Assembly: GCA_964594495.1 (NCBI GenBank)
Contig: CAZQLX010000001.1
Coordinates: 1 to 50,559, forward strand
DNA: 50,559 bases
Source: Candidatus Woesearchaeota archaeon
GTDB lineage: Archaea > Nanobdellota > Nanobdellia > Pacearchaeales > GW2011-AR1
Reading direction: 5' to 3'
Numbering within the stretch: position 1 is the stretch's first letter; every line of letters begins with the position of its first letter. This document shows positions 26,286 to 28,676 of this stretch, piece after piece. Position numbers and translations under genes: made by a program. The notes under the pieces were generated by a model that was not told the DNA's origin, ran no database searches, and saw only the letters and a program-made list of their open reading frames with translations.

Positions 26286-26879
26286 TTTAATCTCTTTTAT
26301 TTGAATTAATATTAAACTGAATAAATAAACCTTGCTAGTCTGCTCTCGGTGTGTAATTTGAGGAAAAATTTTTCAATTTTAGTTGACTTATCTTTTCCTT
26401 TTTAACTGTATTAATTTTCTTTACTACTTCTTTTCTTAATTTGAAAGTATTTTCCCATTTTGCATAAGCTTGCTAACCTTCATAACTTTCCATCATTTCT
26501 CTATAAGATACCTCTCCTTTGTCAAAATTAACAATTTGCTTAAACATTTTTTTAACATTTCTTTTTCTTAATAATTTGTATTTATAGAAATTTCTAAAAC
26601 CAAGAAAATCTATTCCTTGAGATAAAGGAATAACTTTTGATTTATCTTTGTGCAACTCGATGCACAGATTTTTCTTAAGAAAATTATTTATTTCATATTG
26701 CCAAATAATTAATTGCTCTTTTGACTTATGTAAAATCACGAAATCATCCACATATCTAATATAATATTTTGCTTTGAGACCATGTTTAACAAAATAATCC
26801 AGCTCATTAAGATAAATATTAGCAAAAAACTGTGAAGTTAAATTACCAAGAGGCATGCCTTTGTGGCATGCGGAAGTTA

Positions 26880-26895
26880 CTCTCTCTCTCTCTCT
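26880..26895 (-). repeat. (AG)8 dinucleotide tract (CT8 on the plus strand) at the second RT frameshift
   Basis: Read directly from the sequence. The frame change between RT pieces 2 and 3 maps to this tract. Confidence 0.9.
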
Positions 26896-27328
26896 TCATT
26901 TTGAAGTTCGTATTAATGGTATTCTTTAATATTTTTTCTATTAAAAAGATCACATCTCTATCGATTATTGTTTTTTTAATTATGCTTGATAAGATATTGT
27001 GGTTAATTTCCTCAAAATAGTGCTTAATATCTGCTTTGAGACAATAACCCGTAATATAATTGCAATCTCTAAATGTATTTTTAGCAACTAGACCATTATT
27101 TGAAACTTTCCTCTTAAAATAATCGAATCTTTGTAAAGCAAATAAACCCCCCTTCCCTTTTCTGTTAGCGCATGAATCATATATAAATTTTCTATCGAAA
27201 AGAGATTCTATGATATTACAAAGAGCATGATGAACAATGCGATCTCTAAAATCAGACTTAGATATCTTACGTGTTTTTGGGTCTCTTAGAATAAAATTCT
27301 TAAGAAATTTTGGATTATAGGTTTTATA

Positions 27329-27368
27329 TTTAAGTTCATAATGTAAAGTTTAAGTTCATAATGTAAAG
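27329..27368 (-). repeat. Perfect 20-bp tandem duplication (2 x TTTAAGTTCATAATGTAAAG, plus strand) inside the RT
   Basis: Positions 27329-27348 are identical to 27349-27368. Each copy encodes 'LHYELK', in two different frames. Confidence 0.95.
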
Positions 27369-27532
27369 CCATTAAATTATAAAAGATATTATTTTCAAAT
27401 TCAATAACATAACTCTTTTTGGTCTTTCCTTTTCTTGCTTTTTTCCAAGCTAATATTAAATTCTCAAAAGAAATGACTTTTTTGTATAAGTTGTTATATG
27501 CAATCATTATAAAAGTCCTAGCCAGTGCTGAG

Positions 27533-27622
27533 CCATTCGACCATTACTGTTGGAATCGTCTAACCTGTTGTTCCAATTGGCGTTCCAGTTGCCGTTCCTG
27601 TTACGGTACAGCCTGAGAAAGC
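27533..27622 (-). repeat. DGR template repeat (TR), non-coding, about 90 nt (boundaries +/- a few nt)
   Basis: It aligns with 27944-28039. It is rich in AAC/AAT codons (9 Asn codons in the VR frame) and ends 25 nt upstream of the RT ATG. Confidence 0.85.
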
Positions 27623-27800: not shown

Positions 27801-28610
27801 TTAAATTAATGCTTTAAGACTTTTTTGAAATTCTGCTAATCTTGCTTTTTGTGTTTGCCTCAAGACTTCAATTCTAGTATCATCGATATCTCTAACCATT
27901 TGTTCTAAATTTTCTGCGGTGGCTTCGCCACATACAAAATCACCCACCCGACCAACACTGCCGGAATCGCCCAACCTGCCGTGCCAATCGGCGTACCAGC
28001 CACAGCCCCCGCCCCCGCCACGGCACAGCCTGAGAAAGCCCGATTTTGCTCTAAAGGGAAAATTAGCTTCCAGAAATTTTTGAGCTTTTTCTCCAGAAAG
28101 AATTTCCGGGTTATTTTTAGAAGCTATAAGATTTATACCATAAGAATTTTCTCCTTTTTTCAAATCGAACGCCTTAAAAGAAGGAAAAACAATAGGAAAC
28201 TCTCGACCTTTCATTTGTACCCTTATAGATTTAGCAAACTCTTCGTTTGGCGAATCTACACTATAAAGGACAGCTCCTATGTCCCTATAAACTCCATTAG
28301 TCAATTTTTCAAATTTATCTAAAACTTTAAATTCTTTAACACCGGGCAACCACAATTGATTATTACTTTTTCTAGCCCATTCTTGATTTATTAGAATGCC
28401 AAGAAAGATATAACTCCCTTCATTCTCGCCTGTTTGTGGATTATACTTAAAGTATCCTTTAAATCCAATAGATTCTGGAAATTCTTGCGCGATTCTTGTT
28501 TGAACTGACTCGGCAATTCCTTTATTTTCTTCTGCAGTTGTAGTTCTTGCATATCTAAACTTCTTACTTTTAGAATTATACCATAATGGAACTAATTGAG
28601 CTTCTATCAT
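27801..28610 (-). CDS. DGR target (variable) protein, 269 aa, with VR at about residues 191-223
   Basis: The intact ORF contains the VR, which encodes 'GFLRLCRGGGGGCGWYADWHGRLGDSGSVGRVG'. The TR-encoded version 'FLRLYRNRNGNWNANWNNRLDDSNSNGRM' resembles the 'R(V/L)xRGGSWNNN' VR of C-type-lectin-fold DGR targets. Confidence 0.8.
   Translation of the reverse strand: MIEAQLVPLWYNSKSKKFRYARTTTAEENKGIAESVQTRIAQEFPESIGFKGYFKYNPQTGENEGSYIFLGILINQEWARKSNNQLWLPGVKEFKVLDKFEKLTNGVYRDIGAVLYSVDSPNEEFAKSIRVQMKGREFPIVFPSFKAFDLKKGENSYGINLIASKNNPEILSGEKAQKFLEANFPFRAKSGFLRLCRGGGGGCGWYADWHGRLGDSGSVGRVGDFVCGEATAENLEQMVRDIDDTRIEVLRQTQKARLAEFQKSLKALI
27944..28039 (-). repeat. DGR variable repeat (VR), about 96 nt, inside CDS 27801..28610
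   Basis: By hand alignment it differs from the TR at 21 of 28 TR adenines, at 1 of 62 other positions, and by a 6-nt insertion. It is a local GC-rich spike in an AT-rich genome. Confidence 0.85.
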
Positions 28611-28631
28611 GATTTTTCTTTATTTATTAAG

Positions 28632-28639
28632 TATTTAAA
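28632..28639 (-). promoter_or_regulatory. Candidate TATA box (TTTAAATA) for the DGR target gene
   Basis: The octamer ends 22 nt upstream of the ATG at 28610, the same sequence and spacing as upstream of aglB. Confidence 0.4.
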
Positions 28640-28676
28640 TTTTTCTCTTATGTTATTACTATGTAAAAGTAACTTA

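Follow-up and report, generated by a model that had tools for sequence, protein, structure and literature searches.

Does the perfect 20-nt tandem duplication in the reverse transcriptase (RT) gene of this archaeal DGR explain why no intact enzyme is encoded, or did it arise in a gene that was already silent? We addressed this question in the window, by which we mean the whole stretch of 50,559 nt analysed here, an entire contig, and in related RT loci. The explanation that we favour, with a probability of roughly 0.6 for the whole of it, is that a variable dinucleotide tract would act as a switch on the RT, and that the duplication and a nonsense codon are private lesions that followed.

A DGR cassette with a broken RT gene

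Judged by its homologues, the gene is a DGR-type RT on the minus strand of a DPANN-type archaeon. The host is placed there because of its closest RT and target homologues; the closest RT sequences come from Nanoarchaeota, Woesearchaeota and Pacearchaeota MAGs. The repaired RT protein matches Pfam RVT_1, covers 93-98% of intact DPANN RTs with an identity of up to 70%, and carries the clade marks tested for a DGR RT, motif 4 GxPxGNLTSQ and YVDD. Its best PDB match is chain 8ub7_A ('Reverse transcriptase', 328 aa; E = 1.4e-41), and group II intron RTs match it more weakly (E 1e-15). The match to 8ub7_A bears out the initial annotation, which had named the gene a DGR RT. We take 8ub7_A to be the Bordetella phage DGR RT; compared with it, the window RT has a loop before motif 4 that is ~35 residues longer and holds a simple-sequence tract.

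The cassette runs on the minus strand from 28610 to 26335 in the order target gene with VR, TR and RT (Table 1). The VR lies in an intact target ORF adjoining the TR and the RT, as in DGRs, and 21 of the 22 substitutions between TR and VR fall at TR adenines, the specificity by which these elements are recognised. Changes affect 21/28 TR adenines, 18 of them being A>G, and there is one non-adenine mismatch. The strong A>G bias (18/21) makes the VR rich in Gly (RGGGGGCGW). One insertion, which adjoins AAC/GGC repeats, lengthens the VR by 6 nt relative to the TR. In-frame indels beside AAC repeats are documented in DGRs and have been ascribed to template slippage (PMC5758913). Since such indels are known, we dropped the idea that the 6-nt indel is a sign of decay and did not count it as such. 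The earlier statement that TR, VR and target are all intact thus holds for the target gene and for TR and VR as a pair; strict co-linearity of the two repeats does not hold, given the 6-nt insertion and the one non-adenine mismatch.

No Pfam family was found for the target protein. Its AlphaFold model is confident (mean pLDDT 87.6) and gave no significant match to a C-type-lectin or other PDB fold; weak matches were to proteins with FGE-sulfatase-like domains (TM ~0.3). Directly upstream of the target start codon lies an imperfect 28-nt tandem repeat (28612-28667, 2 copies, 83% matches). A second RT or a second VR was not found within the window, and no Avd-like ORF was found between the target gene and the RT. 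The locus therefore resembles known DGRs (BPP-1 with its bRT, TR and VR; those of DPANN/CPR from groundwater) in the adenine-specific TR/VR pair and in the position of the VR in the 3' part of the target ORF, upstream of TR and RT. It differs from them in lacking an Avd-like ORF and in an RT ORF that is broken three times.

Table 1 Features of the DGR cassette in the window
Feature	Coordinates	Strand	Description
Target gene	27801..28610	-	Intact, 269 aa, VR near the C-terminal part
VR	27944..28039	-	96 nt, inside the target ORF
TR	27533..27622	-	90 nt; ends ~25 nt upstream of the RT start codon
RT fragment A	27286..27507	-	ATG at 27507, residues 1-53, 20 out-of-frame codons, TAA; 73-aa ORF
Duplication copy 1 (5' on the coding strand)	27349..27368	-	LHYELK in the frame of the RT start codon
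Duplication copy 2	27329..27348	-	LHYELK in the frame of RT motifs 1-3
RT fragment B	26843..27349	-	Residues ~47-202, motifs 1-3, KADIKHYF, duplication-shifted frame
(AG)8 tract, (CT)8 on the + strand	26880..26895	-	Variable loop just before motif 4 (KGMPLGNLTSQ)
RT fragment C	26335..26895	-	Residues ~199-384, motifs 4-7 with YVDD, thumb
TAG replacing the Trp of GWQAYAKW	26473..26475	-	In-frame; from the alignment of homologues

The three interruptions are the 20-nt duplication, the (AG)8 tract and a TGG>TAG change. When the repaired protein was searched against the window, tblastn returned three matches, spread over two frames: residues 1-53 in frame -1 (27507-27349), residues 47-202 in frame -3 (27349-26882), and residues 199-384 in the first frame again (26895-26338). 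Residues 47-53 are matched twice because the first two segments overlap. Fragment B passes through (AG)8 to a stop at 26843-26845, and fragment C, in the ATG frame with the TAG inside, ends at the natural stop at 26335-26337. The tract lies ~450 nt downstream of the duplication and shifts motifs 4-7 out of the frame of motifs 1-3. The frame is recovered by one more AG unit or by two fewer, either of which gives KRERERV, and several homologues have RERERV or ERERV at the tract position. It is the sole such tract in the window, where 0.02 would be expected by chance.

The TAG replaces a Trp that is invariant in the aligned homologues (17/17) and is aligned with a Trp of 8ub7_A. It stands 45 codons from the end of the RT, and the conserved sequence goes on downstream of it in the same frame. 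Reassignment of TAG was rejected; since 5/53 ORFs of the contig end in TAG, it is a real stop there. Dropping the duplication alone would leave the RT broken because the (AG)8 shift and the TAG remain, and the intact, translatable RT gene expected of a DGR was not found at the locus. The repaired RT departs from the homologues at 3 of 115 columns that are otherwise invariant, the stop itself counted, which is within the range of intact homologues, and the other 53 large ORFs of the contig are intact and densely packed. Both observations suggest that the lesions are recent and restricted to the RT.

The 20-nt duplication and its possible origins

Both adjacent 20-mers read TTTAAGTTCATAATGTAAAG (100% identity). 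Tandem Repeats Finder gave them a period of 20, 2.0 copies, 100% matches and a score of 80, the highest of its 40 rows in the window, and found no further perfect tandem duplication in the 50.6 kb contig. With up to 3 mismatches allowed, the 20-mer occurs in the window at these two copies alone (chance expectation 0.03), and 0/100 shuffles of the window reached two matches. No microhomology was found at the borders of the duplicated unit. On the coding (minus) strand, copy 1 is translated as (A)LHYELK when read from the ATG at 27507, and copy 2 reads (T)LHYELK in the frame that leads into YKTYNPKFLKNFILRDPKTRK (motifs 1-3). The site corresponds to RT codons 47-53 (ALHYELK). A single ALHYELKY is present in 17/17 aligned homologues, the duplication is absent from all relatives aligned, and the alignment to homologues is recovered after one copy is deleted; on this comparison, the single copy is the ancestral state. 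The additional 20 nt make translation from the ATG end after 73 codons, the ATG frame having 20 sense codons past copy 1 and then a TAA.

The initial annotation had described two identical adjacent 20-mers that both encode LHYELK, first in the ATG frame and then in that of motifs 1-3, and had concluded that they frameshift the RT and are either recent or an assembly artefact. The tandem-repeat score, the three-frame translation and the single ALHYELKY of the homologues agree with this description. The alternative of recency or artefact is a fair one, and recency is supported by the repaired protein, which has no excess of odd residues at invariant columns. The stop of the N-terminal fragment, which had been placed 22 codons on, is actually the 21st codon. 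Inactivation of the RT by the duplication was confirmed as regards the frameshift; as the sole or sufficient cause the duplication falls short, since (AG)8 and TAG also break the gene.

Neither the neighbouring PfkB kinase nor the target protein had an exact match in the contig index, and no sister strain was found in public collections. There is no second allele for comparison because the contig proteins tested are all in singleton clusters (5/5). The duplication may therefore be viewed as an artefact of assembly or curation, in which pieces overlapping by 20 nt were joined untrimmed and the real genome has a single copy. The exactly two and exactly identical copies, the absence of divergence and of microhomology, and the failure to find a contradicting independent assembly of the organism all fit such an error, as does the length itself, since 20 is k-1 for k = 21, the smallest k-mer of common metagenome assemblers. 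However, this is the only such duplication in 50.6 kb, and an artefact would fall at random, whereas the duplication sits in the RT, which makes up 2.4% of the contig and already carries the TAG and the out-of-frame tract. A real frameshift can persist in this gene because it is non-functional for other reasons. TR and VR, moreover, share no exact stretch of ≥21 nt that could break the de Bruijn graph here, and a comparable 13-nt tandem duplication is found in a relative, L113, ~10 nt from the homologous site. We consider an artefact unlikely, though it retains some weight, and lean towards the duplication being a real lesion.

L113 is a Hainich H51 contig of coverage 2. Its imperfect 13-nt tandem duplication, AACCAAACTTATG / AACCAAACTTGTG, at nt ~1120-1150 of the oriented sequence, frameshifts the RT at ELKNQTYEP and is flanked by a 7-nt direct repeat, GAACCAA. 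A hot spot of N-terminal duplications, proposed from the window and L113, was discarded as a two-case coincidence, the other secondary lesions being scattered.

Tandem duplications that are short and perfect are unstable, and their loss can be precise; the pneumococcal type 3 capsule gene cap3A undergoes phase variation by tandem duplication. The duplication in the window could be a reversible switch of the same kind, in which case single-copy revertants would coexist in the population. It resembles that of cap3A in being a perfect, short, direct duplication in an ORF, in shifting the frame and in being open to precise loss; the RT in question already carries a hypermutable tract, and L113 has its 13-nt duplication near the same position. 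L113, however, is the sole case among ~200 related loci and comes from a coverage-2 contig. Unlike in cap3A, loss of the duplication would not restore the window RT, since the TAG would remain and the enzyme would still be broken. A reversible duplication is hence very unlikely to explain this locus.

The (AG)n tract in related RT genes

Metagenome contigs were scanned, blind to frame, for (AG)5 followed after a 12-42 nt gap by ATGCCNYTNGGNAAYYTNAC (MPLGNL motif). The scan gave at least 120 loci, 107 of which are evaluable, with motif 3 (KADIKHYF) on the contig, and the frame of each locus was taken as that of MPLGN relative to motif 3. Among the matches listed, 15 of the 107 are in frame, 44 are shifted by +1 and 48 by +2, so that 92/107 (~86%) of the tract-bearing genes are out of frame. 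Dereplication at 95% identity leaves 96 clusters among the matches listed, with 14 in frame, 38 at +1 and 44 at +2, and these counts depart from one third in frame (binomial p = 2.7e-5). The out-of-frame state is present at coverage 10-28 too. Among the matches listed, 69/72 complete out-of-frame cases have an upstream frame that stays open over ≥408 nt ahead of motif 3, and in 73/80 out-of-frame loci the downstream frame is open over ~450-500 nt. Secondary lesions in the out-of-frame loci number 3/72 in the N part and 7/80 in the C part; at ~10% of out-of-frame loci against 0/15 in-frame loci, also among the matches listed, they are too few for significance.

The tract varies in length and hardly at all in place. 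Relatives have 5-19 units in the same loop in well over 100 RT genes, and in 1.09 Mb of fetched DNA all (AG)≥6 tracts (123/123) lie in the loop before motif 4, which tolerates insertions. Tract-bearing loci come, among others, from the public Hainich H41/H43/H51 and Ga02095xx samples. Unit number differs within 8 of 12 near-identical clusters, and pairs of contigs from different samples with 0-3 mismatches per 1.0-1.2 kb have 9/10, 9/8, 19/16 and 6/8 units. As in contingency loci, (AG)8 is a perfect repeat inside an ORF whose unit number sets the frame; the other mark of such loci, tract polymorphism with in-frame and out-of-frame alleles in one lineage, was observed in the relatives and not in the window. 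Loci L100 and L168 carry 9 and 10 units, L100 being out of frame and L168 in frame. They agree in TR and RT, and their VRs show ~14 differences, located at TR adenines. This lineage has diversified its target very recently.

Split RT genes also appear in protein and genome collections. C-terminal RT fragments form 2103 protein clusters, most of the 26 inspected begin exactly at MPLGN, and fragments of this kind occur on contigs of up to 422 kb. The search that found them returned short proteins only and probably favours targets of similar length, so we take the 2103 clusters as showing that split genes are common and not as a ratio. At six split loci picked by the length of their contigs, (AG)n or G9 stands at the junction in 5/6; the sixth, without a tract, is probably a long-read assembly with homopolymer errors, as its contig name suggests. 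Among 80 intact RT loci from GTDB genomes, ~20 have (AG)4-13 or G6-11 within 150 nt before GMPLGN. The scan of GTDB genome contigs ranks by full-length score and covers intact RTs only, the contig of the window not being among its results, and it is thus unusable for the ratio of in-frame to out-of-frame loci. In the viral collection, the RT family is nearly absent (0 and 2 matches).

Poly-G can take the place of (AG)n. In L001, found via its target protein, the RT is split into ORFs of 234 aa and 169 aa at G8 in the same loop, and the split is also present in L003, a separate Logan assembly. Poly-G runs of 8-11 in the loop before motif 4 occur in L001/L003, L206, L015, L024, L029 and L033, of which L001/L003 and L206 are out of frame. 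In L018 and L057, G9 runs fall within the C-terminal half of the RT. A corresponding frame-blind pattern that we propose for poly-G is G≥8, a gap of 10-40 nt and then ATGCCNYTNGGNAA.

Several individual loci differ in other ways. One extra AG unit in L126 relative to L136/L147 would restore the frame with the adjacent codons, and a 2-nt deletion (AAATATTG>AAATTG) ~30 nt upstream of the tract breaks it again. The RT of L201, compared with L091/L151, is interrupted in CANRKGKG by an insertion of ~100 nt with ANR at both ends, which could be a small mobile element. L107 and L126 lie on the same 24.6-kb contig, Ga0209542_10005738, which therefore has two tract-bearing DGR RT genes. A conserved CGAAC before the tract was considered as a nucleotide element and rejected; its codon phase is constant (31/36), so we regard it as coding conservation.

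Judged against these relatives, the (AG)8 state of the window RT is normal for the family, and the duplication and the TAG are private to the contig.

Recoding, split enzymes and decay as rival readings

An RT that extends over several frames may still be made. Benler et al. 2021 described a Quimbyvirus DGR RT that lies over overlapping ORFs in three frames and is apparently active (PMC8008677), and the window RT might be produced in the same manner, by programmed recoding at two sites. The two systems share a DGR RT spread over several frames and a VR with adenine-specific variation, the first and last RT fragments of the window are in the same frame, and (AG)n would presumably permit perfect tRNA re-pairing after a 2-nt slip. 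In contrast to the two conserved programmed frameshifts of the gut phage, the window has a private duplication, conserved in no relative, a nonsense codon, and a variable repeat that shifts the frame either way. The direction of the tract shift is not conserved (44 versus 48 among the matches listed); since +1 and +2 are about equally common, a single programmed ribosomal frameshift is disfavoured. The TAG at the invariant Trp, a real stop on this contig, would still end the protein. Recoding at two sites is thus scarcely credible for the window RT. RNA-level slippage may also occur at the tract.

Another account is that the out-of-frame tract genes are not switches and are either recurrent dead ends, in which the tract expands in pseudogenes, or functional two-piece RTs translated from the Met of GMPLGN. 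In 81/92 out-of-frame loci among the matches listed, the downstream frame has no ATG ahead of the MPLGN Met, the upstream frame usually ends within ~30 nt of this Met, and gene callers place the start of the second ORF there, all of which would suit a split enzyme. A designed, fixed split, however, needs no perfect hypermutable repeat, and it would sit poorly with in-frame alleles in the same lineage and with poly-G in the same loop of other members. For dead ends speak the extra lesions, found in ~10% of out-of-frame loci and in 0/15 in-frame loci among the matches listed. Against pseudogenes, ~90% of the out-of-frame loci among the matches listed, in ~100 distinct lineages, have both halves open, tract length varies faster than any other site, and the VR has diversified in the L100/L168 lineage. 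Taken together, dead ends or two-piece enzymes appear somewhat improbable as a general account, though they keep some weight.

We infer the switch function from consensus sequences, and much of the evidence would also be compatible with a functional split RT or with RNA-level slippage. The odds seem to us about even that the tract, whether (AG)n or poly-G, serves in DPANN DGR RTs as a hypermutable stochastic switch on a targeted mutator, with populations mostly off. Slippage in what would be a surface loop ahead of motif 4 would then alternate the enzyme between full length and an out-of-frame form, off or split. The reading of the window RT as such a switch overtaken by two irreversible lesions is tied to it, and we hold the two jointly to be equally balanced.

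Discussion

In the mechanism that we propose, slipped-strand mispairing at (AG)n would turn the RT on and off and leave it, in most cells, off or split. Both the duplication and the TAG would be genuine and recent loss-of-function mutations, gained in this lineage while the RT was silent, and tract slippage alone could no longer restore the enzyme encoded in the window. We read the duplication in this way, as a recent loss of function in an already silent gene, because the (AG)8 state is the usual one and ~10% of the out-of-frame relatives have secondary lesions. Since the gene would already have been silent when the duplication was added, the DGR copy in the window is probably frozen at the VR that it now has, barring trans action by an RT that is encoded elsewhere.

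The word frozen may be too strong. In both L163 and L176 (6 and 8 units, both out of frame), TAG stands in place of another conserved Trp (QLVI*KEE). Between these two loci the VRs differ at TR adenines, and the remaining 2.5 kb differs at ~3 sites. These differences between the VRs blur the reading of a frozen copy; an RT acting in trans or old polymorphism could explain them.

The tract has its closest counterparts in the contingency loci of Neisseria, Haemophilus and Campylobacter. It resembles them in being a perfect in-ORF repeat whose unit number sets the frame, in its polymorphism between otherwise identical sequences and in the presence of both frame states in one lineage. It differs in that the host is an archaeon, that the tract sits in the RT of a targeted mutator and not in a surface or restriction-modification gene, and that it is known here from assembled sequences. 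Archaea were still listed as unexplored for phase variation in a 2025 review (PMC11868660). We found no literature on a DGR RT controlled by a repeat tract, phase variation or slippage, although an earlier description may exist. Roux et al. 2021 do not mention split or frameshifted RTs, and the only published frameshifted DGR RT that we found is that of Quimbyvirus (PMC8008677).

The duplication itself is an ordinary inactivating lesion or an artefact, and the tract is the interesting part. Taken alone, the duplication means the loss of one DGR enzyme in one uncultured archaeon, through ordinary decay or an assembly error. The AG tract, on the other hand, seems to be a hypermutable feature of DPANN DGR RTs that is widespread and had so far gone unremarked. 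Surveys class many DGRs as inactive, and the tract would bear on what restrains DGR activity. Where an intact RT ORF is a requirement, pipelines will overlook or wrongly class a large share of such DGRs, and annotators will label the out-of-frame tract RTs as pseudogenes. If thousands of DPANN RTs are kept out of frame by a repeat whose length varies faster than any other site, and yet their VRs diversify, hypermutation in these archaea would itself be under the control of a further, stochastic layer of mutation.
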